Positions 44,600-64,000 of a DNA stretch of 64,000 bases are shown here, in pieces (the first letter of the stretch is position 1; each line of letters begins with the position of its first letter). The notes under the pieces are model-generated. The model had not been told where the DNA came from and ran no database searches. It was given only the letters and a program-made list of their open reading frames with translations. Location: IMG/VR virus record IMGVR_UViG_3300045988_150638. One strand, 5' to 3'. The stretch is from a virus. Lineage: Duplodnaviria > Heunggongvirae > Uroviricota > Caudoviricetes. A program made the position numbers and the translations under genes.

Positions 44600-44610
44600 A
44601 AGGATTTTAT

Positions 44611-45120: not shown

Positions 45121-45139
45121 GAGTCATCCCTTGTATTTT

Positions 45140-45165: not shown

Positions 45166-45236
45166 TGGAGAGGAAAGGGTGCATTGAGGATACCTGACAC
45201 ACGAAGAGTGGCGAGGATCTCTCCCCGCCAGGTCTC

Positions 45237-45450: not shown

Positions 45451-45573
45451 AGATATGGCCTCAGATTAATGTTAAGCGTCTTGCAGGACGCGTAATGTTA
45501 TCTGGGGCTTTCTTCTATCTGCTTTTCGGGTAATGCCTGAAGCAGATAGCCTCAAGCACCCGCAACGATTGTA

Positions 45574-45819
45574 TCAATGTCTGGCTTTTTTTCTATAGAA
45601 ATCACCTGGAAGGGTGAATATCCACATCAGAAGAAATGTTGCAGCAAACATGATCCCTAATGGCCAGACCGCGCCAAAGAAAATCCATACTAAGATCTCC
45701 TCTGCTCGTTCTTTGCGGTCGATATCGACAAGCATTTTTCGGCTGATCATGTATACACAGAAGCCAATACAAACATATCCTGCAAAAGCGATCGCTAACT
45801 GTAAAAAATCAGATTGCAT
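45574..45819 (-). CDS. hypothetical membrane protein (2 TM helices) downstream of repL
   Basis: Start taken at internal Met MQSDFLQ; hydrophobic segments LAIAFAGYVCIGFCVYMI and ILVWIFFGAVWPLGIMFAATFLLMWIF. Confidence 0.4.
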   Translation of the reverse strand: MQSDFLQLAIAFAGYVCIGFCVYMISRKMLVDIDRKERAEEILVWIFFGAVWPLGIMFAATFLLMWIFTLPGDFYRKKARH

Positions 45820-45869
45820 CTCCGACCTCAAACTGAAAACGCCAGGTGACTCCAGATTAGAGCAATCTA

Positions 45870-46715: not shown

Positions 46716-46744
46716 TACAATGCTGGTGGTTCTTACTACGTCTG

Positions 46745-47545: not shown

Positions 47546-47614
47546 TTTTTCTCCAAATTTGCATCAACCTTCAATCACCAGCTCGAAATGGTGATTCTTT
47601 GCACTTAGAAAACG

Positions 47615-47631
47615 AAATTTATTAGAGCAAA
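47615..47631 (-). promoter_or_regulatory. C1-operator-like site (aaatttattagagcaaa, 1 mismatch) upstream of kilA-repL
   Basis: 16/17 match, about 70 nt upstream of the kilA start. Confidence 0.55.
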
Positions 47632-47708
47632 TTTTTCTGACTCGATCCAGATCGGGTTGGTCGATCTGCTCAGAAACCTGCCAGTTTGCTGGCAGGTTTT
47701 TTCTTTTG

Positions 47709-48752
47709 TTAACCTATTGCTACTGGTTTTAACAAACCAGCATCAAGTAGCTTGCGAGTTAACCACTGCTGGCCTTTACCCGTTAATTGGGGCGTCAGCC
47801 GTATCTGGTAGCCATTTTCATCATCCAGCACCACTTCTTTCACCGTGAAATACCCGGCGTTAATGTACTGCTGGCGCGGTACGTTTTTGCGCGCACCAAA
47901 AGCCATGAGAATGCCGTTCTGGCGCAACCATGAGAAAAGGGCGTTTTGCTTAAGTCCAACGACCTTTGCAAAGTTCCCGATCAGGATTCCATTAGCCACT
48001 GATACCCGGTCGGCAAAATCGACTTTAGGGGCTGCGGCCACCAGCTGTTGTTCCAGCTGCAATTTCTGTTCTGCCAACTCGGCAGCCAGGCGTAGGGCTT
48101 CTGGTAATGTTTGGGGGATCGATGGGGTAGGGGAGTTTGCCTGCTGCAATTCTTCCAGTTTGTCGATCAGCGAACGGCGGACCGCTTTCGATTCGCGCGC
48201 GGCGACTCGCAGGGCTTGTTTGTAGGTCATGGTTATGACAACCATAGGCGTACCGCCACCTGGCGGCACGGTTGCACTTTTTGTGTAACCGTCCTCACCT
48301 TCTAATTCGTCGAGTATTTTTTCGATGAATTTGTTGTTCCGAACCTCTGGTTCCCCACATAACTTACGCGCTTCATTGACCATCTTTAACAGTGTCAGGC
48401 TGTCGATTGTGTCTCCGGTGGTGGGGATGACATTCACGGCTGGTGCTGGCGTTGCTGAAGCAACAGGTGCTGGTTTTTTAACATTCAAATTATTACTGGT
48501 CATTCTATGTGCCTCCTTTCTCATTTCTGCTGCCACCGTTGCGTAACGTAGACGTCCTTGTTCAATCAAATAATCCCTGATCTCGGCTATCAGTAGCCTG
48601 TTGATCACAGCCTTATCTGTTCGGGTATAAAAACGCCTGGTTATCATGAAATAGTTGGCAATTGCGCCGGGGATCTCCCGTGTCGGTATACAGGCAGTAT
48701 GCAGGGCGATCGCTTCGGCTATGTCATTACGGGTGACGAGAGGTTTTTTCAT
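47709..48752 (-). CDS. ant: antirepressor Ant (immI region)
   Basis: 347 aa; C-terminal Ant/KilA-C-like domain; start overlaps the icd stop. Confidence 0.7.
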   Translation of the reverse strand: MKKPLVTRNDIAEAIALHTACIPTREIPGAIANYFMITRRFYTRTDKAVINRLLIAEIRDYLIEQGRLRYATVAAEMRKEAHRMTSNNLNVKKPAPVASATPAPAVNVIPTTGDTIDSLTLLKMVNEARKLCGEPEVRNNKFIEKILDELEGEDGYTKSATVPPGGGTPMVVITMTYKQALRVAARESKAVRRSLIDKLEELQQANSPTPSIPQTLPEALRLAAELAEQKLQLEQQLVAAAPKVDFADRVSVANGILIGNFAKVVGLKQNALFSWLRQNGILMAFGARKNVPRQQYINAGYFTVKEVVLDDENGYQIRLTPQLTGKGQQWLTRKLLDAGLLKPVAIG

Positions 48753-48970
48753 AAACCCCCCTGAACGTCGGCAGAGAAGGGGAGGCTCCAGTAACTAAGT
48801 GAATTGCGCGAGTTAGTTGAAAAACGGGCAGTAAAAATGCAGGGGCCATCAGGCAATTGAGAGCGTGCTTCGTCTTCAGTTGCTGCGATAACGAAGTGAT
48901 AGTGGTGTTTTTTACAGGAATAGAAACGCCAGATGAATTCTGGGCGTGCGCAAGGATTGGCATTAACCAT
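48749..48970 (-). CDS. icd: Icd-like small protein (interference with cell division) overlapping ant
   Basis: 73-aa ORF with 4-nt overlap to ant; assignment by size and position. Confidence 0.45.
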   Translation of the reverse strand: MVNANPCARPEFIWRFYSCKKHHYHFVIAATEDEARSQLPDGPCIFTARFSTNSRNSLSYWSLPFSADVQGGL

Positions 48971-49280
48971 AGTTACGGCCTCACAATCAGGTTTAACAAC
49001 CTGCTACCCGCTGCTAAACAGGTGGCAGGACGTGACGGGGTTAGCAGACTGGCGATTGTGAAACCAGCAGGCCGAAGCCTCCCCATCACGCCCCACCATA
49101 ATTTGGGCGTAACGCGGTTTTACGGACACAAAAATACCGCAATATCGGATATCTGCGGCTGTCCGCACAATCATTCAGGCTGCTAAACCCGGTCGCAGAA
49201 TTTGCTACGACGGCGGAACTATAAGCCTGAACGATTAAAAGGTCAATATGATGCGAAAAGATAGCATTCGTGACTTAAAA
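48971..49280 (-). ncRNA. c4: interval expected to encode the C4-type antisense immunity RNA and its promoter-proximal target sites (not delimited)
   Basis: Non-coding leader between the operator at 49285 and icd, with several hairpins; inferred from P1 immI organisation only. Confidence 0.3.
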
Positions 49281-49284
49281 ATAC

Positions 49285-49301
49285 AAATTTATTAGAGCAT
49301 T
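49285..49301 (-). promoter_or_regulatory. C1-operator-like site (aaatttattagagcatt, 1 mismatch) at the immI promoter
   Basis: 16/17 match at the head of the c4-icd-ant transcription unit. Confidence 0.55.
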
Positions 49302-49397
49302 ATCTGCTTAATAAATACACAATTGGATCTAATAACCTCTTTTTTTTAAAGGCGAAAATATGTACCCTAAATGGGTTATAAGGCAGGTGAGGTTATA

Positions 49398-49529
49398 ATG
49401 AGAAAACTATTACTATCGTTATTATTTATGGCTGGGACTGTTAATGCAGCATCAAGCGTAAAGGAGATTTGTACCGATTATACGAAATACCTTTGGCAAG
49501 TTTACGCCTTTGCGATCAATGACTATTAA
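49398..49529 (+). CDS. small secreted peptide (44 aa, signal peptide)
   Basis: MRKLLLSLLFMAGTVNA|ASSVKEICTDYTKYLWQVYAFAINDY; AGGTGAGG RBS; AT-rich; not in ORF track. Confidence 0.4.
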   Translation: MRKLLLSLLFMAGTVNAASSVKEICTDYTKYLWQVYAFAINDY

Positions 49530-49550
49530 TCCATGCGTAGGAGTGGATTT

Positions 49551-49868
49551 ATGCTGATTCGTTTGTTTTTAGTGCTTTCCTTTTTAACATTTAATGTTTT
49601 TGCTGATGAAGTTGACTTTTCGAAGGTAGATTGTAATTCAGTGGAAACAAGAAAAGCTCTTATTGAAGAATATAACGAAATATTATCGTCATATGGAATA
49701 ACAGTGGTTGATTCTTATAATCAAAAAACTATTCAGAAAGGAATAAATAAACTGGTCTGTTATGGGGTTTACCAATATTCAGATGGCTCTTCGGAGTATG
49801 TTATTTATAAAGCATACCCAAATAGTCTTGGTGAATTAATTAGTGAGTTTAAACCGATTAATGAGTGA
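49551..49868 (+). CDS. secreted protein (105 aa, signal peptide, 2 Cys)
   Basis: Start at second ATG with AGGAG RBS; MLIRLFLVLSFLTFNVFA|DEVDF... Confidence 0.5.
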   Translation: MLIRLFLVLSFLTFNVFADEVDFSKVDCNSVETRKALIEEYNEILSSYGITVVDSYNQKTIQKGINKLVCYGVYQYSDGSSEYVIYKAYPNSLGELISEFKPINE

Positions 49869-49875
49869 ATGGAAA

Positions 49876-50655
49876 ATGAAATTATTTAATGTAATAACAT
49901 TTTGTTGTGCTATTTTTGCTGGAAGCGCGATAGCTGATAATAAATTGCCAGATTGGCTTTCTACCTCAAAGAAAGATTATGATTTAGTAAGGGCATTCTA
50001 TTTGTCTGGATTTGCTTCGAAAGCAATGAACAATCAATTTGGTTATCATTTGCCATCTGAGTTGGTTAATGATTTTAAAGATAATGAATTTGCTGCTCAG
50101 GAAAAATGGAACACAATTCCAATTGTGTATGGTGAAATAAAATCCATAAGAATGGTGAATAATAAACCAATTGTAGAGTTATTTACTCCAGGGGAAAATG
50201 CAACGCCACTAAATTATATCAAATTGAAAATATTGGATTCAAAGCAAGACTCTCTGTTAAAACTAAAAAAAGGGGATGATATATATGCAGTGTGCTCAGG
50301 TGCTAATTTTAGCTTAGTGCCAATTCTGAGCAACTGCACTCCTGCAACAGACGTCATTGATGCTGCACTCTCTTTTTCTGGTGAATATATGTTCCCTGCT
50401 TTTGATTCTTTTTCACCTACTAAGCAAAACGTCAAATATATATTCACAAATCAAGATCCTGTTCAGATGATGAATTTTATAGGGTACCTATCCTTAGTCG
50501 ATACAACGAAGGATAAGAAAAAAATGGATATGGTTCGTAAGTGTACGCCTTGGAAGCCGGAATGTTCACAACAATTCGTTGATGTAATGGAAGGATTTGA
50601 TAGCATCATGTATAAATATGAGGGAGAATTTAAAAATTACATAGAATTAAAATAG
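49876..50655 (+). CDS. secreted/periplasmic protein (259 aa, signal peptide), possible Sim-like superinfection-exclusion protein
   Basis: MKLFNVITFCCAIFAGSAIA|DNKL...; several Cys in the mature part; AT-rich codons; own terminator downstream. Confidence 0.5.
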   Translation: MKLFNVITFCCAIFAGSAIADNKLPDWLSTSKKDYDLVRAFYLSGFASKAMNNQFGYHLPSELVNDFKDNEFAAQEKWNTIPIVYGEIKSIRMVNNKPIVELFTPGENATPLNYIKLKILDSKQDSLLKLKKGDDIYAVCSGANFSLVPILSNCTPATDVIDAALSFSGEYMFPAFDSFSPTKQNVKYIFTNQDPVQMMNFIGYLSLVDTTKDKKKMDMVRKCTPWKPECSQQFVDVMEGFDSIMYKYEGEFKNYIELK

Positions 50656-50686
50656 TATTTGAAAGGATAGTCAATTTAAGTTTTAA

Positions 50687-50714
50687 AAAAACGCCCATTA
50701 AAGGGCGTTTTATT
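50687..50714 (+). terminator. rho-independent terminator (aaacgccc-attaa-gggcgttt + T-run)
   Basis: Stem-loop and TTTTATTGTTTT directly after the island's last gene. Confidence 0.6.
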
Positions 50715-50815
50715 GTTTTACTCAAAACAACCTGATTATGTGATAACCATATCATATCCCTCATTCCACCTACACTGATTACCCCCCAGACAACAATATT
50801 CCTACTCAATGAACA

Positions 50816-50834
50816 AATGACTACTCGTAGAATC
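50816..50834 (+). promoter_or_regulatory. candidate late promoter: AATGACT-N5-TAGAAT
   Basis: Near-identical to the 20318 element; 30 nt upstream of the 50865 start; followed by the inverted repeat cgtagaatc...gattctacg. Confidence 0.4.
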
Positions 50835-50840
50835 GGTTAA

Positions 50841-51431
<591 letters not shown>

Positions 51432-51441
51432 GGGGGCTGAT

Positions 51442-52053
51442 ATGGGGCTTAATGTTGCTTCAGTAAAGTCTTATGTATCTTCGGCATTAACGACGACATT
51501 ATTTGGCTCCGGCGTTGGTGAGCGGGAAGTTGGTAAGCTGACGTCAATCATCATGAACAAAATGCTGTTCGCGCAAGGATGGCAGTTCTCTGTCGAAGTT
51601 GATGGTCTGGAGGGGGCAGACTTCTTTGCTAAAGACATTACCTACCACGATTACAGCATCGAATATGAAACGATTAAAATCGGCGGAGGGAATATCCTTC
51701 AGCCAACGGAGCGTTCGCCTGGGCAGATAACAATGATGGTCAGGGATACCGTTGATGGCCTCGTTTTGGACTGGTTTAAGACGGCAAAAAGTCGGGTGAT
51801 CAATCCGGACGGTACCGGGAATATACCGTCTAAATATTTGCTCAATGTGCGTATTTATCGGTTGCTGTCCTCCGGTTTAACCAAACTGGAAAATGAGATG
51901 ACGGTATTCCCGGTCACTACCGGCGATGTCACCTATGCGCGGGATCAGGTTACAGAATTTAAGTCATTCCCAATGACCTTCGCATTGCACAGCACGTTTA
52001 ACCAATCCTCAAGTTCTTTAGCTTCCCTTCTGGGCTTTAGTTTTTCGCTTTAA
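51442..52053 (+). CDS. putative tail structural protein (possibly tube-like)
   Basis: 203-aa ORF with GGGGTGA-type RBS; beta-rich composition; position upstream of the tape-measure-like gene. Confidence 0.4.
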   Translation: MGLNVASVKSYVSSALTTTLFGSGVGEREVGKLTSIIMNKMLFAQGWQFSVEVDGLEGADFFAKDITYHDYSIEYETIKIGGGNILQPTERSPGQITMMVRDTVDGLVLDWFKTAKSRVINPDGTGNIPSKYLLNVRIYRLLSSGLTKLENEMTVFPVTTGDVTYARDQVTEFKSFPMTFALHSTFNQSSSSLASLLGFSFSL

Positions 52054-52067
52054 ATTAAGGAGCAAGG

Positions 52068-52949
52068 ATGCTTTTACCCCTTTTCCCGCTACCATCGCGG
52101 CCAACTGAATTAATCCAGTTCCGTCAGCCAAATATTGCTGATGCGATGCGTTTCAACTCGATAACACCGGAGGAACAAGAACAACAGACAACGGCGTATT
52201 TAAAAGCCTTGCTGGCTGAAGCTGCGAAACATGATCCACTGAAATGGACGGCACAGGACCGGATTACCGCGTTATGGTGGATATTTACTGGCTCCCGCGA
52301 AACACCGATCGAGACATTTACCTACACCTGTAAACATTGCGGTAAAGAGCATTATTACGATTGCGATATGAATGCTCTGGCTGAAGATATCCAGGTCCTG
52401 GAAGTGGAACCGTTCATTGACGATATTGAGGTGTCTGTAGAGGGCGTGCCTTATCAATGGCGTATCGTGCCGCTTGATGGTTGGGCAATGGAAATGCTGG
52501 AGATGCGCCGAGCAGCATTGCCACCTGAAGACGACGCGGAATTCAAAGAAGCGATCGTTGATTTGCGTTTTTGGGAATTCGCTTATCAGTGTGAACTTTA
52601 TAACGATGTTAGCGGTACTCGTGAAGAGCAGGCTGAGCGTCGTTATGAAACGATCAAACGGATGGCCATTGATACTGAATTTATGAAGCTGGCGGCACAC
52701 ATCCGGCTGGCTCATGAAAAGCTCGAACATGGTTTACCGTGCTACATCGATAAAGGCGAAATGCGTCTTCGTCTCCCGCCGCACAAATGCCCAAACCAGG
52801 ATACAAAGGAGTCCACAGAGGGTGCGTATACCCGTCTGTGGGTGCCCTTTCGGGCTACCGACTTCATTCCACAGGTGGGGATTGAAAAGCTATCAGACCT
52901 TAGTGTCCAACCTGGTTTTGTATGGGGGTATACCGATTCAGGACGCTGA
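52068..52949 (+). CDS. hypothetical late protein with CxxC...CxxC motif
   Basis: 293 aa; YTCKHCGKEHYYDCD; in operon. Confidence 0.45.
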   Translation: MLLPLFPLPSRPTELIQFRQPNIADAMRFNSITPEEQEQQTTAYLKALLAEAAKHDPLKWTAQDRITALWWIFTGSRETPIETFTYTCKHCGKEHYYDCDMNALAEDIQVLEVEPFIDDIEVSVEGVPYQWRIVPLDGWAMEMLEMRRAALPPEDDAEFKEAIVDLRFWEFAYQCELYNDVSGTREEQAERRYETIKRMAIDTEFMKLAAHIRLAHEKLEHGLPCYIDKGEMRLRLPPHKCPNQDTKESTEGAYTRLWVPFRATDFIPQVGIEKLSDLSVQPGFVWGYTDSGR

Positions 52950-53030
52950 AAGGCTTACTGAATCCTATGCGTTTTTCCTGTTGGAGAAACTGGAAGAAAA
53001 ACTTAAACCGAAACGGTAGGCGATAAGATC

Positions 53031-56000
53031 ATGGAAAGAAAAAACGCCAATATTGACGACGTTATAAGGACAGTTGAAACCGCCAGCGCGAAAGAGCTGG
53101 AAGAGCTTGCAGGTATTCGGGAAGCTGTTGAAGACTTGAAAGGGGAACGAGTTGCAACTGTTGATCCTGTCTCTCGCAGTGTGTCGGCATTAAATCGCAC
53201 AATCGAAAATTCACGTCCTGACTTTGTGACCAATGCGCCATCAGTGGACTCTATTGTTGACGCAATGAAACGGCTTAATTTAGGGGACGTTTCTCGTATA
53301 CGGGAGGACAAAGTCAATAACCGTGAACAGCAGGCTGCACCAACAGCGCACAATCCCCCAAATAGACGAAGAGAGGCAATAACAGAGGATGTTAAAGCAC
53401 AGCGGTTAGAAACGGTCAAACTCGCTCGTGATTTGAAAGGGGAACGCGTTGCAACGGTTGACCCAGTATCTCGCAGTGTGTCGGCATTAAATCGAACAAT
53501 CGAAAATTCCCGGCCAGACTTTGTGGCCAATGCGCCATCAGTAGACCCTATTGTTGACGCAATGAAACGGCTTAATTTAGGGGACGTTTCTCGTGTAGTT
53601 CAGGAGGGCATTGCTCAACAGGAACAGCAGGCCAAATCAACTACACCAAAGGGTAAAAAACGACGCAGGAAGGCTATACCAGAGGATATAAAGGCACAAC
53701 GGACCGTAGCAGCCGAACACGCTCGCGAAATGTTCGATCAAAAAGGCGGTGCGCAAAAAAGCCAAAACCAACGCGATGCGCGTGGTCGTTTTATTGGAAA
53801 GTCAGGGAGTAAGGCCGCAGCGGAAGATGCCCGTGCTGAACGTGCTGAAAAGGCCAGGCGCAAAGAGGATGATGAGCGTCTAAATGCTGAATCAGGTTTA
53901 TTAAAAAAACTGTCAAAAGTAGCTGAAGGCATAGGTAACCCTTCAGAGACTCGTGCCGTCGATGCGTTAGGTTATGCCGTTGCTGGTCCATTGTGGGCAG
54001 CAGGGAAGGAGCTTGGCGGGATATCAAAAGAAGTTGGTGGATCGCTTAATGGTGCCAGAAAGTCTATTGCCGATGTGATTCGTGGCAATGACGATAACAG
54101 CCGTAGAAAAGGTTTTTTTAGGCGTAAATCGCAAAATAGTGCCGATGTCGTTCAGGTTAACACCCAAAAACGGACGGTTCAGGAACTTCAGGAGCAGACC
54201 AGCGAAATTAAAGAGGGCAATGACAAGATCCTCAGCGCCCTTGATCAGATAGCCAAAAACACCGGGAAAAAGAAGGGCGGCTTGCTGTCCAAACTATTTA
54301 GCCTGTTAGGGAAGGGGGCCGGTGGCGTCGCGTCGTTGTTAATGGGACGTGGCATGCTGAAAAAAGCTGGAGCACTCGCTTTTGGCGCTCTGGGGGTAAA
54401 GAAACTTGTAGGAATGCTACGCGGTGGTGGCAAGAAGACTATCGCCCATGAAGGTGGAGATTTGGCTGCCCGGGCAGCAGGTAAATTTGGATTAAAGGCA
54501 GTTGGTAAAGGGGCGTTACGCGCAATTCCCTTAGTCGGCACAGTGGCTGGAGGTATTTATGATGCGGTAACCGGTTGGAATGATACAGAAGCGCAACGTC
54601 GAGCGTTTGGGCTTAAATCAGGACAAGATCCATCATTCCAGCAAAAAGCCGCTTATACGTTAGCCAATGTTCTTGATATGGGGGGACTGGTATCTGGTAT
54701 TAGCAGCGCCATTGGTGAGGTTCTCAAATCACTTGGATTTGAGGATATCGGCAATATGTTGCAATCATTTTCGACGGAAAGTATTGCCCAGGCCATTGAT
54801 AGTGGGATTACCAACTTAGAAACATATATTTCTAACCTTGGCGACACCATTTCTACCAAGTTCGAAGATTACACAGCAAAGATTGGTGATGCTGTTTCAG
54901 CATGGTTTAGCGATACATCTAATAAGCTGCTTGAAAAGCTGGATGCCATCAAAGACTTCTTTACTGTTGATAACCTGAAACAGGTTTTCAGTGATGCAAT
55001 TGATAGTGCAATTGATTTCATTAAGAACCCAGGGAAACACATTAAAGAGGCGGCTGGTAATATTTGGGATGGGGTTAAAAATTTACCTGGTAAAGCATTA
55101 GATGCAGCGGTTGATGCCGTTAAAAATACCCCTGCGGCAATGATTGTATCAAAAATACCCAATCCGATCGGCGAGGCTAATGCGAAAGAAATCACTCCAG
55201 AGTTAAAAGCTCCGGTTAATAGCGAGGCTAATGCGAAAGAAATCGCTCCAGAGTTAAAAGCTCCGGTTAATAGCCACCAGGAGACATCTGATTCTAAAAC
55301 TGAATCCGATGCCAAACAGACTAATATTGTTACCCGCGTGATAAATGCGGCACTGGACACGGCGAAAGATAGCAATGAAACAGTTAAAGAAACTGCGAAT
55401 CAGATTATCAATGCAAATGCCGTAGAAACGGGCAATAGCGCGTTGCAGAAAATTGATAAAGCTATTGGTCAAAATAGCTCGTCATCATCGTCGCTTAATA
55501 CCACTGGCACCAGGAATGACATTCAGAAAGCTGCGGATACCTACAACAATGGCCGCTTGGATGTAAAAGTCGGAAGTCTTGGATCTGAAGGTAAGGCAAA
55601 TCTCGATAAGTTGGCTCCGTATTTTGCTGAACTAGAGAATAAATATGGTCTTCCAGAAGGCACTCTTTACGCGATTGCTGCAACTGAATCTGGTGGTAAT
55701 CCGTATGCAAAATCCCAAACCGGTGCTCTGGGAATGTTTCAGTTCACGGGGATTGCTCGTGAAGAGACTGGCTTAGCTGAAGGTGAATCGTTTGATCCTG
55801 TGAAATCGGCAGAAGCTGCGGCTCTTCTCATGAGCAAGTATCTGAAGCAAGCCAATGGAGACTTAAACGAGGCCATCACTGCATATAACGCTGGGTTTGG
55901 CACTATCAATAAGTGGAAAAAAGGCACAGGTGACTTATCGAAAGAAAACCGTGAGTACGCGATCAAGGTCAATACTCATCGTGCTCGCTATTTAGGTGGT

Positions 56001-56771
56001 GAAATCTATACACCTGGAGCAGGAGCACAGGGTGGGGCGCAATATGGAGTGAGGGGACCACTGCCTGATAACGCTGTTATCGATCAGTCTACTGGCCTGG
56101 CGTTTACCCCTGGTGATAGCCCGTTTGAGAAAGGCGGTCTGGTAGACAAAATCGGCAATGCTGTTGGCGTTAACGATCTGGTCAACAAATTCATGAATGG
56201 CCGGGGTATGCGTCGGGAAGTCGTTCAGGGAACGCTCGAAGAACGTGCACGAGGGAAGGGGACCGCAACAGCAGCTGGCAATGTGTATGTTGATATTCCG
56301 ATGCCAGTTGAAGAGGCGCGTCCGGTGGCCAGCAACTCAAGTTACTTTGACCAACTCGGCGCACAAATGGGGATTGATGGACTATTCGATAAACTCCGCA
56401 ACTCGCCGGGGATGCGGAAAAATAATGTGCCTGAACCAGCCTCCACGTCCAAGGTGACGACTGCCGCCAACGATTTGCAGCAACCAACCGGTCGTATGCA
56501 GATAGACGGGCAGGTTATTAGTGACCTTGGCGGTTCCGGTGCCAAGCCGACAATGCAGTTGGCTGATAATACCGTTTCACTTGATGGTGAAACGAAGCGG
56601 CTGTTTGCGCAGATGACCTCATTGCTTGCCAGGATTGAAGAGCACACCAAAGACTCGGCGAAAGGCCAGGGAACTGTCGTAAAGGTCAGCACGCCTCAGC
56701 CGGGCGTTATGCGCACGGTACCACTGTCAATTGATGATCCGTTGATGAATGACTACGCGAGAGTTGATTGA
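53031..56771 (+). CDS. sit: Sit-like tape-measure / injection protein with soluble lytic transglycosylase domain
   Basis: 1246 aa; SLT motif AIAATESGGNPYAKSQTGALGMFQF...AYNAG; Gly-rich TM-like segments; internal tandem repeats. Confidence 0.8.
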   Translation: MERKNANIDDVIRTVETASAKELEELAGIREAVEDLKGERVATVDPVSRSVSALNRTIENSRPDFVTNAPSVDSIVDAMKRLNLGDVSRIREDKVNNREQQAAPTAHNPPNRRREAITEDVKAQRLETVKLARDLKGERVATVDPVSRSVSALNRTIENSRPDFVANAPSVDPIVDAMKRLNLGDVSRVVQEGIAQQEQQAKSTTPKGKKRRRKAIPEDIKAQRTVAAEHAREMFDQKGGAQKSQNQRDARGRFIGKSGSKAAAEDARAERAEKARRKEDDERLNAESGLLKKLSKVAEGIGNPSETRAVDALGYAVAGPLWAAGKELGGISKEVGGSLNGARKSIADVIRGNDDNSRRKGFFRRKSQNSADVVQVNTQKRTVQELQEQTSEIKEGNDKILSALDQIAKNTGKKKGGLLSKLFSLLGKGAGGVASLLMGRGMLKKAGALAFGALGVKKLVGMLRGGGKKTIAHEGGDLAARAAGKFGLKAVGKGALRAIPLVGTVAGGIYDAVTGWNDTEAQRRAFGLKSGQDPSFQQKAAYTLANVLDMGGLVSGISSAIGEVLKSLGFEDIGNMLQSFSTESIAQAIDSGITNLETYISNLGDTISTKFEDYTAKIGDAVSAWFSDTSNKLLEKLDAIKDFFTVDNLKQVFSDAIDSAIDFIKNPGKHIKEAAGNIWDGVKNLPGKALDAAVDAVKNTPAAMIVSKIPNPIGEANAKEITPELKAPVNSEANAKEIAPELKAPVNSHQETSDSKTESDAKQTNIVTRVINAALDTAKDSNETVKETANQIINANAVETGNSALQKIDKAIGQNSSSSSSLNTTGTRNDIQKAADTYNNGRLDVKVGSLGSEGKANLDKLAPYFAELENKYGLPEGTLYAIAATESGGNPYAKSQTGALGMFQFTGIAREETGLAEGESFDPVKSAEAAALLMSKYLKQANGDLNEAITAYNAGFGTINKWKKGTGDLSKENREYAIKVNTHRARYLGGEIYTPGAGAQGGAQYGVRGPLPDNAVIDQSTGLAFTPGDSPFEKGGLVDKIGNAVGVNDLVNKFMNGRGMRREVVQGTLEERARGKGTATAAGNVYVDIPMPVEEARPVASNSSYFDQLGAQMGIDGLFDKLRNSPGMRKNNVPEPASTSKVTTAANDLQQPTGRMQIDGQVISDLGGSGAKPTMQLADNTVSLDGETKRLFAQMTSLLARIEEHTKDSAKGQGTVVKVSTPQPGVMRTVPLSIDDPLMNDYARVD

Positions 56772-57127
56772 TGGCCAACAATAACGAAATTGATCCTTTG
56801 CTGACGCTGGAGTTATCCGGCGTAAAAACGTATGAGTCCCAGGAGGAGGCCTGGGGCGCTCGTTTATATGAGTGGCTAAACACTTATCAGGGTGAGGTAT
56901 ACGGAGATCCGTCATGGGGCAATGTTTTACCGCAGTTTAAACACGAACCGACCAACTTGTCGCATGTTCAAATTGCGGTTGAGGCAATGCTGTTGCAAAA
57001 ACTGACGGTAGATTTACCTGACATACCGATTTCTGGCTTGTCAGTAGCCGAGGGAGATGCTTTTGATAAGTTGAAAATATCCATTCGTATCAGGGATATA
57101 ACTATCACACAGGACGTGGTGCTATGA
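56768..57127 (+). CDS. putative baseplate wedge protein (GPW/gp25-like)
   Basis: 119 aa, size and position after the tape measure; weak sequence resemblance. Confidence 0.35.
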   Translation: MMANNNEIDPLLTLELSGVKTYESQEEAWGARLYEWLNTYQGEVYGDPSWGNVLPQFKHEPTNLSHVQIAVEAMLLQKLTVDLPDIPISGLSVAEGDAFDKLKISIRIRDITITQDVVL

Positions 57128-58557
57128 GTAAAACAACACCGACTAAAGACAGTATTCGTGCAGAGTTTGAAGAGCTTGTCGAGAAAGATTCATTCTGGTC
57201 GAAGTTTGTCGGCTCTCAATTTGTCTCGATGCTGACATTGTTTATTACCCAGATTGTCTACAGGTGCTTTCAGTATGCCGATGCGGCGCTGGCTGAAGGC
57301 TTTATATCGACCGCGACGCGGCGTTCCTCTATCCTGGCAGCGGCAGAAACGAATAGTTACGTTGGTACCAAGCCAACACCGTCATCGGGGATGATTGAGA
57401 TCACCGCCACAAGTGAAGATGCCCCAGCGGTAATCCCCAAAAACATGCCTTTAATATCTGACGACCAGTACCCTTACATGACTATGGATGTATGCAGGTT
57501 GGTTGACGGCACCGGTACGGTAGAAGTGGCACAGTTGGAAATCCAGGAGGTGACATATACCGTTACGGCAGCCAAAGAATTTCTGGAAGTCGTGTTATCA
57601 AAGGCTCTTACTGCTGTCTGCTATAAGCTGGAAGTATTCGTGACGACCGATGGTAAGACCACGCAGTGGTCTTCCAGCACTATGTTCCGGTTAGCCGGTA
57701 GTAAAAGCCAGGTCTACGTTGAGTTTTATAAACCATCCGAGCAGTTGGGGGTTCGATTCGGCGATGGGCTAATTGGGCAAATACCGCCAGAAGGTTCGAC
57801 AATTACGCTTAAGGTATGGTGCACCAACGGCGATATAACCCTGGTTGCTGGCCAAAACCTGACGCCTGTCGATTCTGCGGCTAATTTAGCTAATTTGATT
57901 TCAGTTAAGACAACGACACCTATAACCGCAGGTACCGATGCTGAAACAACGGAGATCACACGTAACCGTGCACAATATTACCTTGCCTATGATGATCAGG
58001 TCGTATGGGGCGGGGACTATACGTATTTTCTGGTTCGTAACATCCCGGGGCTGTCCTGGGTAAAGGCATGGGGCGAAGGCCAGCAAGAGAAATTAGATGG
58101 TGCTTATAATGTTCAGAATATCAATAAGATATTTATTTCAGGATGGCATCCAAATAAAAGCCAGTCAGAGCTTGAAGAAATGATCCTGACTGCCTTTAAG
58201 AAGGTACCGAATGAACTGAACAAGAAATTCTCTTATAAAGAGGTCAGAAAACTACCATTTAAGATAACCATCACCGGGCGGATATCGGCAAGCCTGACTA
58301 TTGAGAACGTGACTGATGAGTTGAAGTCGGCACTGGAAACAAAATTTGGGCGCGACTCAAATTTCTTTGATCCGAACGGTGTCGGCAAGTACATCCTGAT
58401 CAAGAAAAAAGACGTTTGGGCATTTATCGAAACGCTGGGTTATTTCCGCGACTTTTATCTGGAATTTGTCGAGTGGAATGAGTCCAACGGCTTTTACGAT
58501 TTCGTTTATCTGGATACAGAAAACTCCACCTTTAATATTTCGTATGAGGAGGAGTGA
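57124..58557 (+). CDS. putative baseplate protein (J/gp6-like position)
   Basis: 477 aa, coupled to neighbours; size and position only. Confidence 0.35.
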   Translation: MSKTTPTKDSIRAEFEELVEKDSFWSKFVGSQFVSMLTLFITQIVYRCFQYADAALAEGFISTATRRSSILAAAETNSYVGTKPTPSSGMIEITATSEDAPAVIPKNMPLISDDQYPYMTMDVCRLVDGTGTVEVAQLEIQEVTYTVTAAKEFLEVVLSKALTAVCYKLEVFVTTDGKTTQWSSSTMFRLAGSKSQVYVEFYKPSEQLGVRFGDGLIGQIPPEGSTITLKVWCTNGDITLVAGQNLTPVDSAANLANLISVKTTTPITAGTDAETTEITRNRAQYYLAYDDQVVWGGDYTYFLVRNIPGLSWVKAWGEGQQEKLDGAYNVQNINKIFISGWHPNKSQSELEEMILTAFKKVPNELNKKFSYKEVRKLPFKITITGRISASLTIENVTDELKSALETKFGRDSNFFDPNGVGKYILIKKKDVWAFIETLGYFRDFYLEFVEWNESNGFYDFVYLDTENSTFNISYEEE

Positions 58558-59393
58558 TGCAACGTTCCTGGTTTAATAATCGGCTTACATCAGCTAAGCA
58601 AAAGTCATTGCTCTATAAATCATTGGCTGATTTGGTTCAGTCAATGATGGACACCTTTGTTGACCCATGGTTGGAGCGAATTACCAACCGGAAGTCTATT
58701 TTTTCCATGAGCAAGGAGGATCTGGAGACCAGGACAAATGAACTTGGCCAGTTCTTTACTATCAGAACCTCAAACTCATCTTCCGTTCCGATGTTGTTAC
58801 AACAGCGGCTTGATGAGATTCACTTTAAGGGGACTGAACGCCCTATAAACCAGACAATTTACCGCGAATTTAATGGTATTTCTGTTTTATGGGATCCGAT
58901 ATATGCACCGGTGGACCTTGAACGTCATCCCTATGGCACAGTTCTAATACCAGAAAGCACACTGGAAACTACCGGCGGCACATTCGGTGAGATGTTTCTG
59001 ACTTCCAGAGGGATGATCAGTATTCCCATAAACGACCTGGCCCGGACAATGGGTATTACTGGCACGATAGATCAGTCCGCAATTACAGAAGAAATTCTCA
59101 GAAAGTTTAATCAGTTCGTAAAGCCTCTACTGCCACTGCATATAGTGTTTGATGGGCTTACGCTCTATTTGTCGGTTGTTGTGAATGAACAGGCCGACAT
59201 GATCACTTTGAACGAGATTTCTGATACCGAAAAAGCGTACTGCTGGTTTGAAACTTCGGATACAACTTCGCTTACTGGAGTTACGTCGATTAGCGCCCCG
59301 ATCACCGCAACGCCTGGTGGCACTATTGTGAAAGCGACACCTACGTTTGATCGCACACGCGCAGATGATTTGTTGCTGGATAGCGACGCCTGA
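58554..59393 (+). CDS. putative baseplate/tail-fiber attachment protein
   Basis: 279-aa ORF overlapping the upstream stop. Confidence 0.35.
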   Translation: MMQRSWFNNRLTSAKQKSLLYKSLADLVQSMMDTFVDPWLERITNRKSIFSMSKEDLETRTNELGQFFTIRTSNSSSVPMLLQQRLDEIHFKGTERPINQTIYREFNGISVLWDPIYAPVDLERHPYGTVLIPESTLETTGGTFGEMFLTSRGMISIPINDLARTMGITGTIDQSAITEEILRKFNQFVKPLLPLHIVFDGLTLYLSVVVNEQADMITLNEISDTEKAYCWFETSDTTSLTGVTSISAPITATPGGTIVKATPTFDRTRADDLLLDSDA

Positions 59394-59423
59394 CAATCAC
59401 CCCGTCCGCAGGGCGGGGTGACA

Positions 59424-59441
59424 AGTTACTTCTCTTACAAT
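59424..59441 (+). promoter_or_regulatory. candidate late promoter variant: AGTTACT-N5-TACAAT
   Basis: One mismatch to the shared upstream element; preceded by an 11-bp hairpin (59395..59419). Confidence 0.3.
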
Positions 59442-59471
59442 GAGGCTTCACAACATTGATTAGGGAAAATC

Positions 59472-59906
59472 ATGTCTGACGTCTCAACAAACCTCTATAA
59501 GAGTCAGTTGTTGGACTATTACTATCAGCGGCGCGCTGAATCGTCCATTAACAAAGGCTCTCGATTTTTAATCAGCAAGGCCGTTTTCGGTACCAGTTCA
59601 CTGGTTACTAAGAAAGGAGATGGCACTTATGAGATTGGAGAACTGCCAAAGGCTTTCGAGCTGGCAGAACTGACCAGTAAATTTTGCACCATCAACCTCG
59701 TCCCAACCTACTCAGGCGGGATAATTACTGTCCGAATGGACCTTGATCAAAGCCAGTTGCAGAAAGGGAAAAACTACCCATTCAACACTCTGGTTGTTCT
59801 GGATAACGAGAACAAGCCAATCGCCATTATTTGTGTCCAGGAAGACTCGCTGTATGTGGGCAAAACATATACCGCAGTTATGGCCATAAACACGACTACA
59901 GCATAA
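59472..59906 (+). CDS. hypothetical tail-fiber operon protein (R-like position)
   Basis: 144-aa ORF immediately upstream of the tail-fiber gene. Confidence 0.4.
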   Translation: MSDVSTNLYKSQLLDYYYQRRAESSINKGSRFLISKAVFGTSSLVTKKGDGTYEIGELPKAFELAELTSKFCTINLVPTYSGGIITVRMDLDQSQLQKGKNYPFNTLVVLDNENKPIAIICVQEDSLYVGKTYTAVMAINTTTA

Positions 59907-59917
59907 GGATATGCTTG

Positions 59918-62900
59918 ATGAATGACGTTACAGTTGTCACATCGGTTACTTACCCATCACCCGAGTCGTTGGCTCTGGTGGCTGATGTGCAATACCACGA
60001 ACCATATCTGTCAGCCGCGCTAAACCGAAAATTCAGGGGAATTGTTGACCCTGGATTTTATGCCGGTTTTTTTCCTAAGCCTGGCGGTGGGATGAACCTG
60101 TTAATCACCTCAGTGGATGGTGATAAAACCGCTGGCGCGGCGTCAGTGAATATTGGTGAATTCTACCAGGTAACTATTCAGCAGCGTAAGGATATTTCTC
60201 TTGCACTTAGCGCAGGTAAGAAATATGCAATTGTGCTGAAGGGAAGATACCTCCTTGGAGAAGATTCTTATCAGGTTAATACCGCGTCACATATTCATGC
60301 GGCTGAATTTGTTGCCAGAACCTATACCGATTCATATCAGTTAGGAGATGGGGAACTGCTTGTTTGTACGGTGAATATCCCTGCTGGCGTATCTGCTATT
60401 ACTAAGGAAATGATAGATGTATCCGACCGCATCGATCTCGCGATAGGCATTGAAATTTCCGACTCTGTAAACAGTACCAGAAGTGATGTCGCTGCAAGTT
60501 CGCTGGCGGTTAAAAAAGCCTACGATCTGGCTAAAAGCAAGTATACGGCGCAGGATGCAAGCACAACACAAAAGGGATTAGTTCAGCTCAGTAGCGCAAC
60601 TAACAGCGACAGCGAAACAATGGCGGCTACCCCTAAAGCCGTTAAGTCTGTAAAAGAGCTGGCTGATACCAAAGCGCCAATAGAAAGCCCGAGTCTGACA
60701 GGAACGCCAACCGCGCCGACGGCAGCGCAAGGTACAAACAGCACGCAGATCGCAAATACAGCCTTTGTTAAGGCAGCTATAACGGCACTTATCAACGGTG
60801 CACCTGGCACACTGGATACGCTTAAAGAAATAGCGGCTGCGATCAATAACGACCCGAATTTCAGCACAACTATCAACAATGCTCTGGCTCTTAAAGCTCC
60901 TTTAGCAAGTCCTGCATTAACGGGAATACCTACTGCGCCTACCGCTGCACAGGGTACGAATAACACGCAGATTGCTACGACCGCTTATGTAAGAGCTGCT
61001 ATCTCTGCATTGGTCGGCTCATCACCTGAAGCTCTTGATACCCTGAATGAGCTTGCAGCAGCACTGGGCAATGACCCGAACTTTGCGACAACAATGACAA
61101 ATGCGCTGGCAGGCAAACAGCCACTTGATGCAACTTTAACCGCGCTTGCTGGTCTTGCGACAGGCGCAAATAAATTGCCGTACTTTACCGGTACAGACAC
61201 TGTTTCTCAGACTGACTTAACGTCAGTCGGTCGCGATATTCTGGCCAAAACAAGCGTTCTTGCTGTTATCCAATACCTTGGTTTAAGAGAACTCGGTACC
61301 AGTGGTGAAAAGATCCCCCTGTTGAGCACGGCTAACACATGGAGTGCGCGCCAGACTTTCAACGGAGGGATCACCGGGGCGCTGACAGGGAACGCCGACA
61401 CCGCGACGAAATTGAAAACAGCACGCACGATTGGCGGTGTGGCATTTGATGGCTCGGGCAATATCAATCTTCCAGGTGTAAATATAACAGGTAACCAGAA
61501 CACCACGGGGAATGCTGCTACCGCTACAAAACTACAGACGGCAAGAACTATCGGCGGAGTTAGCTTTGATGGTACTGCGAATATTAATTTACCTGGTGTT
61601 AACGTTGCGGGTAATCAGAATACATCCGGTAACGCGGCTACAGCGACCAAGTTACAAACCGCGAGAACTATAAATGGGGTGTCGTTTGACGGTTCTAAAA
61701 ACATTGAGCTAACTCCAAGGTCTATAGGCACGATCAACTCTACAACCATGTCTTTTATTGGTGGTGCAGGATGGTTCAAGCTGGCAACTGTAACCATGCC
61801 ACAGGCCAGTTCCGTGGTTTACATAAGTCTGATTGGTAGTTCTGGATATAATGTTAACTCCCCTATGCAGGCTGGTATATCTGAACTTGTTCTTCGTGCG
61901 GGAAATGGGAATCCAAAAGGTCTTACTGGTGCGTTATGGCGACGGACATCGGTTGGATTTACTAATTTTGCATGGGTGAATACATCCGGTGATACCTATG
62001 ATGTTTATGTTGAAATAGGTAATTACGCCACTGGTGTAAATATCCAGTGGGATTATACCAGTAACGCCAGCGTAACGATTCATACATCACCAAATTACAC
62101 AGTAGATAAACCAACTGGTCTTACTGATGGAACGGTATATGTCATTTACAGTTCGCACATTAAACCGACCGCCACGGATGTCGGCGCATTACCAATAACC
62201 GGAGGAAATCTCAACGGCGGTTTAACGGCTACTGGTGAGATCGTTTCAAGATATGCAAATGGTTTCCGCATTGCCTATGGAAGCTACGGATTCTTTATCC
62301 GAAACGATGGTTCAAACACATATTTCATGTTGACCAATTCGGGTAACAGCCTGGGAACCTATAATAATTTAAGGCCGCTTATCATTAACAATGCCAATGG
62401 TACTGTTACGATCGGTAATGGGCTCGATGTTACTGGCGGCATCAATGGTAGTTTGAACGGCAATGCTTCAACGGCTACGAAGTTGCAAACTGCTAGAAAA
62501 ATAAGCGGCGTGTCTTTTGATGGTTCTGCTGATATAACACTAACAGCTGAAAATGTATCTGCTTTTGCTCTACGCGCTACTGGAACTTATGCCGATACTA
62601 GTGGTGCGGTTCCGTGGAATGCCGAATCAGGTGCGTATAATGTTACACGCTCCGGGGATTCTTATATCGTTGCAAATTTTTATACAGGCGTAGGTAGTTG
62701 TCGGACTCTCCAAATCCGAGCGCACCATAAAAATGGTGGATTGTATTACCGTTCATCACGTGATGGCTATGGGTTCGAAGAGGGCTGGGCTCAGATATAT
62801 ACTAAAAAAGACAGCATCCCTGGTGTGAATACAACTGGTAATCAGAACACTACTGGCAATGCTGCAACTGCAACAAAACTGCAAACAGCACGCACAATAG

Positions 62901-64000
62901 GCGGAGTGTCATTCGATGGTAGTGCCAATATCGACCTGCCGGGCGTGAATAAAGCAGGTAATCAGAGCACTACCGGTAATGCAGCTACGGCTACCAAATT
63001 GCAAACAGCACGTACCATTAATGGGGTTTCATTTGACGGTTCTGCGAATATTTCACTGTCACCAGCAAATATTGGTTGCCCGGCATCTCCTACTGGTTGG
63101 TTAACAACAGGTAATAACGGTGAGTCAATAACGACAGCCCAGTTAGTTACTTTGTTGCAAAATAACGGGGCATTCAATACGAAAGCATGGATCGCTCGTT
63201 GTGCATGGGCGTATGCGAATAGTGCATCCATACCAGACAGTGAAACTGGTTGTGGCATTATTCCACTGGCGGGTGCTGTGATAGAAGTATTCAGCAATAA
63301 TACCAACAATTACACCATTCGAATAACAACGGCCACTACGACAAATGTCTCTGGTGCACTCACTAATGCGGAGTTTATCTATGTGTCTAATGGCTCAAGT
63401 TATTCACCTGGATGGCGCAGAGCGTATAACACTAAAAATAAACCTACTACTGCTGACCTTGGCCTGAGCGATTCAAGCGGATATGTTGGGCGTTTGGTGA
63501 ATACCCGGGTTTTCACTTCATCAGGTACGTATACCCCAACCCCAGGAACAAAACGGATCAGGGTCACAATAACGGGCGGCGGTGGCGGAGGGGGCGGCTG
63601 CAAGGCTATATCCAATAATGAAACGTTTTTCGGTGCTGGCGGCGGGGCAGGTGGGACAGTAATCACCACGCTGATCCTGACGAAGGATAGTTATCCTGTC
63701 ACTATCGGCGCAGGTGGGGCCGGCGGCGTTAGTGCGACGACCGGCCTCAAGGGCGGTGATAGCTCGTTCGGATCGGTAATAGCCCCTGGTGGTGAAGGTG
63801 GCGGGAAAGTGGGAGTTACAAACACAAACGGCGGTAACGGCGGTGTGCCAAGTACTGGCGGTATCAACATCATTGGTGGACATGGAGGCGACGGTCAGTC
63901 CGGAAATATCGGCGTCAGCGGTGAAGGCGGAACATCGTACTGGGGGGGCGGTGGACGCGCAGGCGCTGGCGGTGGTGTTAGTGGTAAGGCATATGGTTCA
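59918..64000 (+). CDS. tail fiber protein (S-like), 5'-partial: open frame continues past the window end
   Basis: ATG 59918; frame open for 1361 codons by my reading; no plus-strand ORF is listed here because no stop is reached; repeated fiber motifs and a Gly-rich region. Confidence 0.7.
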   Translation, partial: MNDVTVVTSVTYPSPESLALVADVQYHEPYLSAALNRKFRGIVDPGFYAGFFPKPGGGMNLLITSVDGDKTAGAASVNIGEFYQVTIQQRKDISLALSAGKKYAIVLKGRYLLGEDSYQVNTASHIHAAEFVARTYTDSYQLGDGELLVCTVNIPAGVSAITKEMIDVSDRIDLAIGIEISDSVNSTRSDVAASSLAVKKAYDLAKSKYTAQDASTTQKGLVQLSSATNSDSETMAATPKAVKSVKELADTKAPIESPSLTGTPTAPTAAQGTNSTQIANTAFVKAAITALINGAPGTLDTLKEIAAAINNDPNFSTTINNALALKAPLASPALTGIPTAPTAAQGTNNTQIATTAYVRAAISALVGSSPEALDTLNELAAALGNDPNFATTMTNALAGKQPLDATLTALAGLATGANKLPYFTGTDTVSQTDLTSVGRDILAKTSVLAVIQYLGLRELGTSGEKIPLLSTANTWSARQTFNGGITGALTGNADTATKLKTARTIGGVAFDGSGNINLPGVNITGNQNTTGNAATATKLQTARTIGGVSFDGTANINLPGVNVAGNQNTSGNAATATKLQTARTINGVSFDGSKNIELTPRSIGTINSTTMSFIGGAGWFKLATVTMPQASSVVYISLIGSSGYNVNSPMQAGISELVLRAGNGNPKGLTGALWRRTSVGFTNFAWVNTSGDTYDVYVEIGNYATGVNIQWDYTSNASVTIHTSPNYTVDKPTGLTDGTVYVIYSSHIKPTATDVGALPITGGNLNGGLTATGEIVSRYANGFRIAYGSYGFFIRNDGSNTYFMLTNSGNSLGTYNNLRPLIINNANGTVTIGNGLDVTGGINGSLNGNASTATKLQTARKISGVSFDGSADITLTAENVSAFALRATGTYADTSGAVPWNAESGAYNVTRSGDSYIVANFYTGVGSCRTLQIRAHHKNGGLYYRSSRDGYGFEEGWAQIYTKKDSIPGVNTTGNQNTTGNAATATKLQTARTIGGVSFDGSANIDLPGVNKAGNQSTTGNAATATKLQTARTINGVSFDGSANISLSPANIGCPASPTGWLTTGNNGESITTAQLVTLLQNNGAFNTKAWIARCAWAYANSASIPDSETGCGIIPLAGAVIEVFSNNTNNYTIRITTATTTNVSGALTNAEFIYVSNGSSYSPGWRRAYNTKNKPTTADLGLSDSSGYVGRLVNTRVFTSSGTYTPTPGTKRIRVTITGGGGGGGGCKAISNNETFFGAGGGAGGTVITTLILTKDSYPVTIGAGGAGGVSATTGLKGGDSSFGSVIAPGGEGGGKVGVTNTNGGNGGVPSTGGINIIGGHGGDGQSGNIGVSGEGGTSYWGGGGRAGAGGGVSGKAYGS
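61266..61291. other. cix/hix/gix-like 26-bp recombination site inside the tail-fiber gene (ttatccaataccttggtttaagagaa)
   Basis: 21/26 match to the hixL reverse complement with a central CCTTGG core; position matches a constant/variable fiber junction. Confidence 0.5.

Follow-up and report, generated by a model that had tools for sequence, protein, structure and literature searches.

Gene S and its operon

The last part of the window (the whole stretch of 64,000 nt that was analysed) holds the late operon R-S(-tfa), which encodes the tail fibre of a plasmid prophage of the P1 family (Punavirus). Immediately upstream of S lie sit, bplB, bplA, gene 16, LPs and R, and the open reading frames at 53031-59906 have the order and sizes found in P7 and P1. 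The operon and the constant part of its fibre gene comprise the following features:

59423..59441, plus strand: homologue of the late promoter LPs, with a -22 box (AAGTTACTT) and a -10 box (TACAAT), serving R-S-tfa
59472..59906, plus strand: gene R (144 aa), a tail-fibre structure/assembly protein, positioned as in P1 and P7
59918..>64000, plus strand: gene S, the tail fibre, with an ATG at 59918 and open to the window end (1361 codons)
59918..61278, plus strand: Sc, the constant N-terminal part of S (aa 1-454), by ungapped alignment to P1/P7 Sc
60674..61117, plus strand: the P1 Sc tandem repeats b1 and b2 (222 bp each), placed by transfer from M81956 1783-2004 and 2005-2226

The intergenic stretch 59394-59471 is identical at 76 of 78 positions to the P1 region carrying the annotated LPs, with one mismatch in the promoter spacer. 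The R product matches phrog_2032 (E 8e-84), and in relatives PF26881 (Phage_P1_tail_fiber_R) is matched as well. The ATG of S follows 11 nt past the R stop, and from this first base nt 1-1505 of the gene align without gaps to S of P1 (94.8%; M81956/NC_005856) and of P7 (96.1%); together with a match to phrog_454 (E 0), this identifies as P1-family S what a preliminary description, made from the letters alone, had called a tail-fibre gene. Full-length S encodes 1392 aa in two near-identical contigs (L024 and L025), where the stop codon lies 96 nt beyond the window end.

Sc corresponds to the annotated Sc of P1 (M81956 1027-2388) and joins the fibre to the baseplate. The two collar-like motifs noted earlier are the PTAPTAAQGTN copies at 60707 and 60929 (longer form PTAPTAAQGTN(S/N)TQIA), spaced by 222 nt, with one copy in each of b1 and b2.

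The crossover site and the mosaic distal fibre

In P1 the invertase Cin carries out recombination between cixR and cixL, which lies about 4.3 kb from it in inverted orientation, and Sv/U is thereby swapped for Sv'/U'. In the window, the junction of Sc and Sv carries a Din-type 26-bp crossover site, followed by a long distal part:

61266..61291, minus strand: cixR, the 26-bp Cin crossover site, an orphan relic, 26/26 to cixR of P1, P7 and MH422554
61279..64000, plus strand: distal (Sv-equivalent) part of S, in one fixed orientation; the window ends 96 nt short of the stop codon
61400..61705, plus strand: three tandem 40-aa ATKL(Q/K)TAR modules (regular expression on the translation)
62153..62386, plus strand: T4 gp34-like trimerisation domain, aa 746-823 (Pfam PF21446, E 7e-27)
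62471..62536, plus strand: fourth ATKLQTAR module, solitary (regular expression on the translation)
62825..63052, plus strand: fifth and sixth ATKLQTAR modules with GNQNTTGNAA linkers (120-nt tandem repeat)
63456..64000, plus strand: glycine-rich C-terminal tip module (PF21722 Gly_rich_2, aa 1201-1353 = nt 63518-63976, E 1.7e-9)

The letters at 61266-61291 read TTATCCAATACCTTGGTTTAAGAGAA. Scored against a published table of crossover sites (PMC3241671), their reverse complement gives 26/26 for cixR, 22/26 for cixL and 21/26 each for hixL, gixL and bixL, and the published cixR is identical to it (PMC3241671). The match of 21/26 to hixL given earlier for a Hin/Gin/Cin-type site is thus exact but undersells it. 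The site occupies codons 450-458 of S, the same codons as in P1, and the crossover dinucleotide of the annotated P1 and P7 sites falls at window 61278/61279. It occurs once in the window, and with up to 3 mismatches allowed none of 100 shuffled sequences contained it. The best other match to cixL or cixR in the window is 17/26, and Din-family sites other than cixR stay below 20/26 in the window and below 19/26 in the part of L024 beyond cixR. Multiple inversion of the Min type, as in p15B, is rejected: the fibre region holds a single site, and mix sites in the window, cixR aside, reach at most 19/26, those at 19/26 all lying outside S.

Homology to P1 Sv covers only the first ~143 nt of that part and ends near 61422 (S nt ~1505); the remainder is a foreign mosaic, whose best match is NZ_CP195379.1 (99.25% over S nt 1553-4083). 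TATKL(Q/K)TAR...FDGS modules, of which at least six had been proposed, number exactly six; they start at 61400, 61520, 61640, 62471, 62867 and 62987 (aa 495, 535, 575, 852, 984 and 1024), and GNQ(N/S)T(T/S)GNAA linkers stand at 61490, 61610, 62837 and 62957. Over 62825..63052 Tandem Repeats Finder (TRF) reports a period of 120, 1.9 copies and 76% matches. A PDB search with the three tandem modules returned only a weak match, to the C-terminal region of Dec from phage L (E 0.12), which is a lead and not evidence.

The domain matches all exceed the Pfam gathering cut-offs (bits/cut-off: Phage_fiber_2 99.6/22, Gp34_trimer 94.6/27, Gly_rich_2 38.4/24.3). In the PDB, S matches the T4 gp34 chains 4uxe, 5nxf and 5nxh (E about 1e-20), Mu S (5yvq) and an S/S' construct (8ju3). 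The Gly-rich tract previously seen near the window end is the PF21722 domain, and this tip is probably the receptor-binding end. An exact-pattern scan of IMG/VR with the last 59 nt found 8 contigs, whose common stretch with the window is the Gly-rich tip only (63456-64000, 90-96%); in one of them similarity is confined to 63835-64000.

Similarity between the window and its relatives breaks at S nt 1445/1553, 1634-1656, 2607-2612, 2902 and 3122-3137, that is, at or beside the modules (S nt starts 1483, 1603, 1723, 2554, 2950 and 3070). The ATKLQTAR modules thus mark the mosaic breakpoints, and they probably serve as conserved joints in the shaft, with variable domains on either side. The label 'receptor-binding' given to them earlier is doubtful, since they are conserved joints beside variable domains and appear to be neither receptor-binding units nor the specificity-determining tip. 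Fibre segments would be exchanged between phages by homologous recombination at these modules.

The region downstream in near-identical contigs and relatives

As the last 96 nt of S lie beyond the window, conclusions on what follows rest on near-identical contigs. L024 differs from window 43031-64000 at 2 of 20,970 nt (99.99%) and L025 is 99.87% identical; judged from this identity, the window presumably continues as they do. Among the matches listed, all three near-identical contigs (L024-L026) show the same orientation. A megablast of 44000-64000 against complete E. coli genomes gave no near-identical complete plasmid (best 98%). PacB (313-1797), used for an exact-protein look-up, proved too conserved, and its matches are unrelated P1-like elements.

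In L024 and L025 a single tfa gene comes after the S stop, then a cin stub and lydC; only about 850 nt separate the stop from lydC, a space filled by tfa and the stub. The tfa gene of L024 encodes a tail-fibre chaperone of 136 aa (Caudo_TAP). The stub, mapped in L024, equals P1 cin nt 1-217, where DNA homology ends; by tblastn, 49 N-terminal codons match P7 Cin in both contigs, ending in a stop. Within the L024 stub the promoters and the enhancer are 100% identical to P1; the remainder has decayed and shows a 12-nt gap and an in-frame stop after 44 codons. The enhancer is the sis recombinational enhancer of 5' cin (100% to P1 31678-31749) and lies outside the window. The intact promoters and enhancer are unexplained if the stub is pure debris.

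Neither a second crossover site nor an invertase was found. No second inverted site occurs in the 64-kb window or in L024 from cixR over ~5.5 kb to the locus end (best 17/26), and tblastn with P7 Cin finds no intact ~186-aa serine invertase, giving no match in the window and only the stub in L024 and L025; the search for a second site and an invertase covered the window and L024, with ~28 kb of the plasmid outside both. An opposite-orientation Sv'/U' cassette is likewise absent from L024 and L025. The recombinase had been placed outside the window; it is indeed absent from the window, but downstream in L024 and L025 only the cin stub is present. That everything downstream of the site lies on an invertible segment finds no support in the same contigs, which lack Sv'/U' and an intact cin, and in L024 a second site. 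The lack of a second inverted site and a recombinase downstream, named in the preliminary description as the outcome that would speak against inversion, is what these practically identical contigs display.

The same arrangement recurs more widely. Each of the 15 relatives whose distal fibre is not that of P1 (L002-L004, L006-L015, L024, L025) carries a single exact cixR. In the 13 of them other than L024 and L025 no second site exists within 6 mismatches of cixR (L024 was scanned separately), and in each of the 13 cin is reduced to a fragment by DNA comparison with P7. A distant-mode search for cin in PLSDB also gathers unrelated serine recombinases. As positive controls, the identical scan recovered cixL at 26/26 in P1, P7 and MH422554, 4.0-5.7 kb from cixR and adjoining a 561-nt invertase gene. 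Other P1-like phages (MH422554) have long Sv types that share segments with the window's S inside intact invertible segments, and fibre type alone is thus no proof of loss.

Compared with P1 and P7 (NC_005856, AF503408), the locus shares the LPs-R-S operon, the upstream baseplate and sit genes, an Sc 95-96% identical, the same cixR at the same codons, the first ~143 nt of Sv and, in the near-identical contigs, lydC and lydA/lydB/darA downstream. It differs from S nt ~1505 onwards, where the distal Sv is an unrelated, longer mosaic (S of 1392 aa against 987 aa in P1), and in having one chaperone gene of a different type. The near-identical contigs also lack U', Sv' and cixL, with cin a 217-nt stub. 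Only one fibre can be made. A truncated cin and an incomplete C segment have been described in the P1-like plasmids pSvP1, pTZ20_1P and pJIE250-3, in which switching was presumably lost (Venturini et al., 2019; PMC6906374). Compared with pSvP1 (locus L002), S in the window is a different mosaic (Sc 94%, common distal blocks 91-96% identical), and it has no IS interruption within the region examined. The Min system of p15B, with six mix sites, resembles the locus in its P1-related Sc, Din-family invertase and similar repeated fibre motifs, whereas the window has a single site. The mosaic fibres of Mu (S/S'), P2 (H), lambda (Stf) and T4 (gp34/gp37) resemble it through PDB and Pfam domain matches and module-wise exchange, but they are partial, domain-level relatives of a gene that overall is P1 S.

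Probable loss of the host-range switch

The locus is, with high confidence, a P1-family S with an orphan cixR and one fixed fibre that undergoes no inversion, following replacement by a foreign cassette, and the host-range switch is very probably dead. A foreign cassette of ~3.2 kb would have taken the place of the P1 sequence between S nt ~1505 and cin nt 218; it consists of a distal fibre part of ~2.7 kb, a chaperone gene of its own and a spacer of ~100 nt. Distal Sv, U, U', Sv' and cixL would have been lost in this exchange, along with the 3' two-thirds of cin, leaving one fixed fibre of 1392 aa and cixR as an orphan inside coding sequence. The distal part would then run from the ATKL repeat joints through the T4 gp34-like trimerisation domain and a Mu S-like domain to the glycine-rich tip, and the fibre is presumably functional.

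A live invertible C segment from 61279, with the inverted partner site, Sv'/U' and a cin-type invertase just past the window end, is improbable. Its cixR would be the intact 26/26 site, its layout is that of P1, P7, D6 and MH422554, and the window's own DNA past 64000 is not visible; however, a second cassette would not fit into the succession of S, one tfa, cin stub and lydC in L024 and L025, a second site is absent from L024, and the 15 relatives whose distal fibre is foreign all have the same build. That the 26-bp match is a chance resemblance in coding sequence, with no history of inversion, has a negligible probability: it has in its favour that the site lies inside an ORF and nothing more, and it is refuted by the 26/26 match, which sits at the corresponding point of a gene sharing 95% identity with P1 S, and by the shuffled sequences (0/100).

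The orphan site might also be used in trans, by a Din-family invertase (from co-resident P1/P7, Mu Gin or e14 Pin) acting on it and on a cix, gix or pix site of another replicon. This is highly unlikely, and equally so is its variant, in which cixR and the preserved cin promoter and sis form a docking point for the capture of fibre-tip cassettes and not a two-state switch. Cin, Gin, Hin and Pin do complement one another, cixR is 26/26 in every cin-less relative examined, and in the L024 stub the enhancer and the cin promoters match P1 at 100%, the remainder having decayed. Wild-type Din invertases, on the other hand, require a pair of inverted sites in cis within a single supercoiled molecule, as well as Fis and the enhancer, and intermolecular recombination is disfavoured; moreover, the mosaic joints fall at the ATKL modules and not at cixR. 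The conservation of cixR is also no better than that of its surroundings, since in a set of 14 cin-less Sc sequences, without the divergent Sc of L003, 383 of the 1499 windows of 26 nt are just as invariant; including L003 gives a misleadingly low count of invariant windows. There is therefore no evidence of selection on the relic, and its survival is attributed to its being coding sequence within the conserved part of S. Were use in trans nevertheless true, the plasmid could capture new fibre tips or form cointegrates, with the sis enhancer assisting.

The favoured reading, a fixed fibre with a relic cixR, leaves current understanding unchanged, as an orphan site is an ordinary state for P1-like plasmids; loss of cin and the C segment in such plasmids, the P1 Cin system and fibre mosaicism at repeat motifs have all been described already. 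For annotation, it means that a perfect cix site alone does not amount to a working host-range switch, being a leftover in many P1-like plasmid prophages. A phage locked to one fibre presumably has a narrower host range, which is relevant for predicting the hosts that these plasmids, often carrying resistance genes, reach by infection.

Gene S, its crossover site and its modules

The open reading frame that starts with an ATG at 59918, separated by 11 nt from the stop codon of the preceding 144-aa gene (R), stays open for 1361 codons to the window end. In megablast searches against phage records, its nt 1-1505 align without gaps to gene S of P1 (94.8%) and P7 (96.1%). The P1 gene order is kept upstream (1246-aa SLT-domain Sit, bplB, bplA, gene 16 and R), and a 78-nt stretch before R, which takes in the annotated late promoter LPs, matches P1 at 76 of 78 positions. 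This places the window in a P1-family plasmid prophage whose tail-fibre gene S, as judged by sequence, is the gene from 59918 onward.

Two further features lie upstream. A G+C-rich hairpin (CACCCCGTCCGCAGGGCGGGGTG, 59398-59420), conserved with P1 between gene 16 and LPs, probably terminates transcription of the operon before it. The N-terminal part of sit (53031-56771) contains a 165-nt direct repeat, 92% identical, at 53133-53297 and 53430-53594.

Features of gene S (window coordinates)
60707 and 60929: PTAPTAAQGTN motif, two copies spaced by 222 nt
61266-61291, minus strand: cixR, reading TTCTCTTAAACCAAGGTATTGGATAA on that strand
61400, 61520 and 61640: starts of ATKL modules 1-3, a tandem triplet with a 120-nt period
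62471: start of ATKL module 4, solitary
62867 and 62987: starts of ATKL modules 5-6, a tandem pair
63456-64000: Gly-rich tip

The preliminary description had scored the 26-bp site at 21/26 to hixL, which is correct, but the site is cixR itself. Against a published table of Din-family sites (PMC3241671) it scores 26/26 to cixR, 22/26 to cixL and 21/26 to each of hixL, gixL and bixL. It occurs once in the window, is not expected by chance, and agrees base for base with the cixR annotated in P1 and P7, at the homologous position. The site falls within codons 450-458, with its crossover dinucleotide (61278/61279) at the boundary between the constant (Sc) and variable (Sv) parts of S; sequence and position mark it as a true and correctly located crossover site for Cin. 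In the old P1 record M81956, the label "crossover site cixR" carries the coordinates of repeat b2 (2005-2226), a database annotation slip; the true 26-bp site lies at 2375-2400, at the Sc/Sv boundary.

The other elements listed earlier (modules, linkers, PTAPTAAQGTN pair and Gly-rich end) are likewise present, and the count of six TATKL(Q/K)TAR...FDGS (ATKL) modules in the S translation holds. Four GNQNTTGNAA-type linkers lie alongside them. Both copies of PTAPTAAQGTN, formerly described as collar-like, sit inside the tandem repeats named b1 and b2 in P1 records, and the Gly-rich end matches Pfam Gly_rich_2 (aa 1201-1353). Other Pfam matches are Phage_fiber_2 and a T4 gp34-type trimerisation domain (aa 746-823). 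The latter is among the variable domains between the modules, as is a domain related to Mu S/S' structures. Compared within S, the modules are well conserved to near-identical in protein sequence, yet their DNA identity is only 62-77%, a divergence that would restrict homologous deletion within the gene. The motif also weakly matches the C-terminal part of phage L Dec (PDB 6e3c; E 0.12), which is a lead only.

Partner site and invertase

The preliminary description proposed that everything downstream of the site may be invertible, with the recombinase outside the window. The recombinase is indeed not inside it, as tblastn with Cin finds no homologue in the window. A whole-window scan returned no second cix site (best other match to cixL or cixR, 17/26), and matches to other Din-family sites reach at best 19/26, scattered and with none in the fibre gene. 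Since the window stops inside S, the same element was sought elsewhere by exact-sequence look-up of the window's Sit protein, which returned three contigs. L024, a 95,455-bp contig of GCA_031252025.1, shows 2 differences in 20,970 positions against window 43031-64000; L025 is 99.87% identical, and the metagenome contig L026 (ERZ28651240 scaffold_11) is 100% identical. L026 ends at window 63604, in the Gly-rich part of S and not at cixR; its end probably reflects a break in the assembly or the arbitrary opening of a circular contig.

L024 reaches 2.77 kb beyond the window end. In L024 and L025 the S stop lies 96 nt past that end, giving a full S of 1392 aa. A 136-aa Caudo_TAP chaperone gene overlaps this stop in L024 and is followed by about 100 nt without P1 or P7 homology, a cin fragment on the opposite strand and the holin gene lydC. 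No cix-like site is present in L024 downstream of cixR; in the positive control, the same scan finds cixL at 26/26 in P1, P7 and MH422554, 4.0-5.7 kb from cixR and adjoining a 561-nt invertase gene. The inversion proposal thus stands as to a genuine, properly placed Cin site, but not as to its partners: the 99.99% identical L024 has neither a second site nor an intact cin downstream, only the fragment. Judged from contigs 99.87-99.99% identical, with about 28 kb of the plasmid lying beyond both the window and L024, this element's inversion system has almost certainly ceased to work.

The piece of cin left in L024 (21580-21837, a short way past the window end) covers P1 cin nt 1-217, beyond which homology stops. 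Its two parts differ oddly: identity to P1 is 100% over the promoters, the start codon and about the first 100 nt, including the annotated recombinational enhancer (sis), whereas the following ~115 nt have decayed and contain mismatches, a 12-nt gap and, after 44 codons, an in-frame stop. Something, such as the neighbouring regulatory region of lydC, may have favoured keeping the intact part.

The same arrangement recurs in 13 further relatives (NZ_MN510446, NZ_CP195379, NZ_AP026785 and 10 contigs that share the window's exact R protein). Each carries one exact cixR, a long non-P1 distal fibre and cin reduced to a fragment; none of the 13 has a second site within 6 mismatches, and, wherever a chaperone gene was called or annotated, there is only one. 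In two of the records PGAP annotates a "recombinase family protein" pseudogene that lacks the C-terminus. The same state has been reported in P1-like plasmids, with host-range switching "presumably lost" (Venturini et al., 2019; PMC6906374), and the orphan-cixR condition had thus been described before in this classic system. Unlike the window-type contigs, the P1-like phage MH422554.1 from infant faeces (7349-13661), whose long Sv shares blocks with the window's, has an intact switch, with cixR and cixL (both 26/26) 5.7 kb apart, a 2.5-kb Sv' and the 561-nt invertase gene. Such long fibres can therefore sit in live invertible segments.

Relatives also vary elsewhere. Sit ranges from 826 to 1338 aa among those with an identical R protein. 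Outside the window, beyond pacB/c1, ten loci (L027-L036) carry differing cargo in one slot, at ~16.5-18 kb in each locus and upstream of a 2255-aa darB-like gene. Examples are a SIR2_2 protein, YaaC with a 169-aa protein, an acetyltransferase and a DUF2971 protein; the slot looks like a variable hotspot, possibly for defence.

Proposed segment exchange and the present fibre

The relatives are mosaic with each other, and their similarity to the window comes in blocks, with breaks at S nt 1445/1553, 1634-1656, 2607-2612, 2902, 3122-3137 and 3529-3539. The first five sets lie at or adjoin ATKL modules (starts at S nt 1483, 1603, 1723, 2554, 2950 and 3070), and the last is the start of the Gly-rich tip. 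As breakpoints fall at the modules, whose protein is conserved, and variable domains lie between them, we read the modules as joints of the shaft where exchange of segments takes place, rather than as the receptor-binding units of the preliminary description. Receptor binding most likely falls to the C-terminal tip of S. This Gly-rich tip recurs at 90-96% identity in IMG/VR prophage contigs without any other match to the window (L016-L023, one sharing just 63835-64000), and looks like a horizontally mobile module.

P1 homology is lost at S nt ~1505 and picked up again at cin nt 217. A ~3.2-kb cassette (~2.7 kb of distal fibre, the chaperone gene and the spacer) has therefore taken the place of ~4.5 kb of P1 DNA comprising distal Sv, U, U', Sv', cixL and the 3' two-thirds of cin. 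The cixR site persists because it codes for part of a stretch of S that is conserved (...VIQYLGLRE...). A comparison of 14 cin-less Sc sequences shows no selection on cixR itself, since 383 of 1499 windows of 26 nt are equally free of variation. The replacement very probably left a single fixed fibre, which, by analogy with P1 biology, is presumably transcribed from LPs late in infection and folded with its own chaperone.
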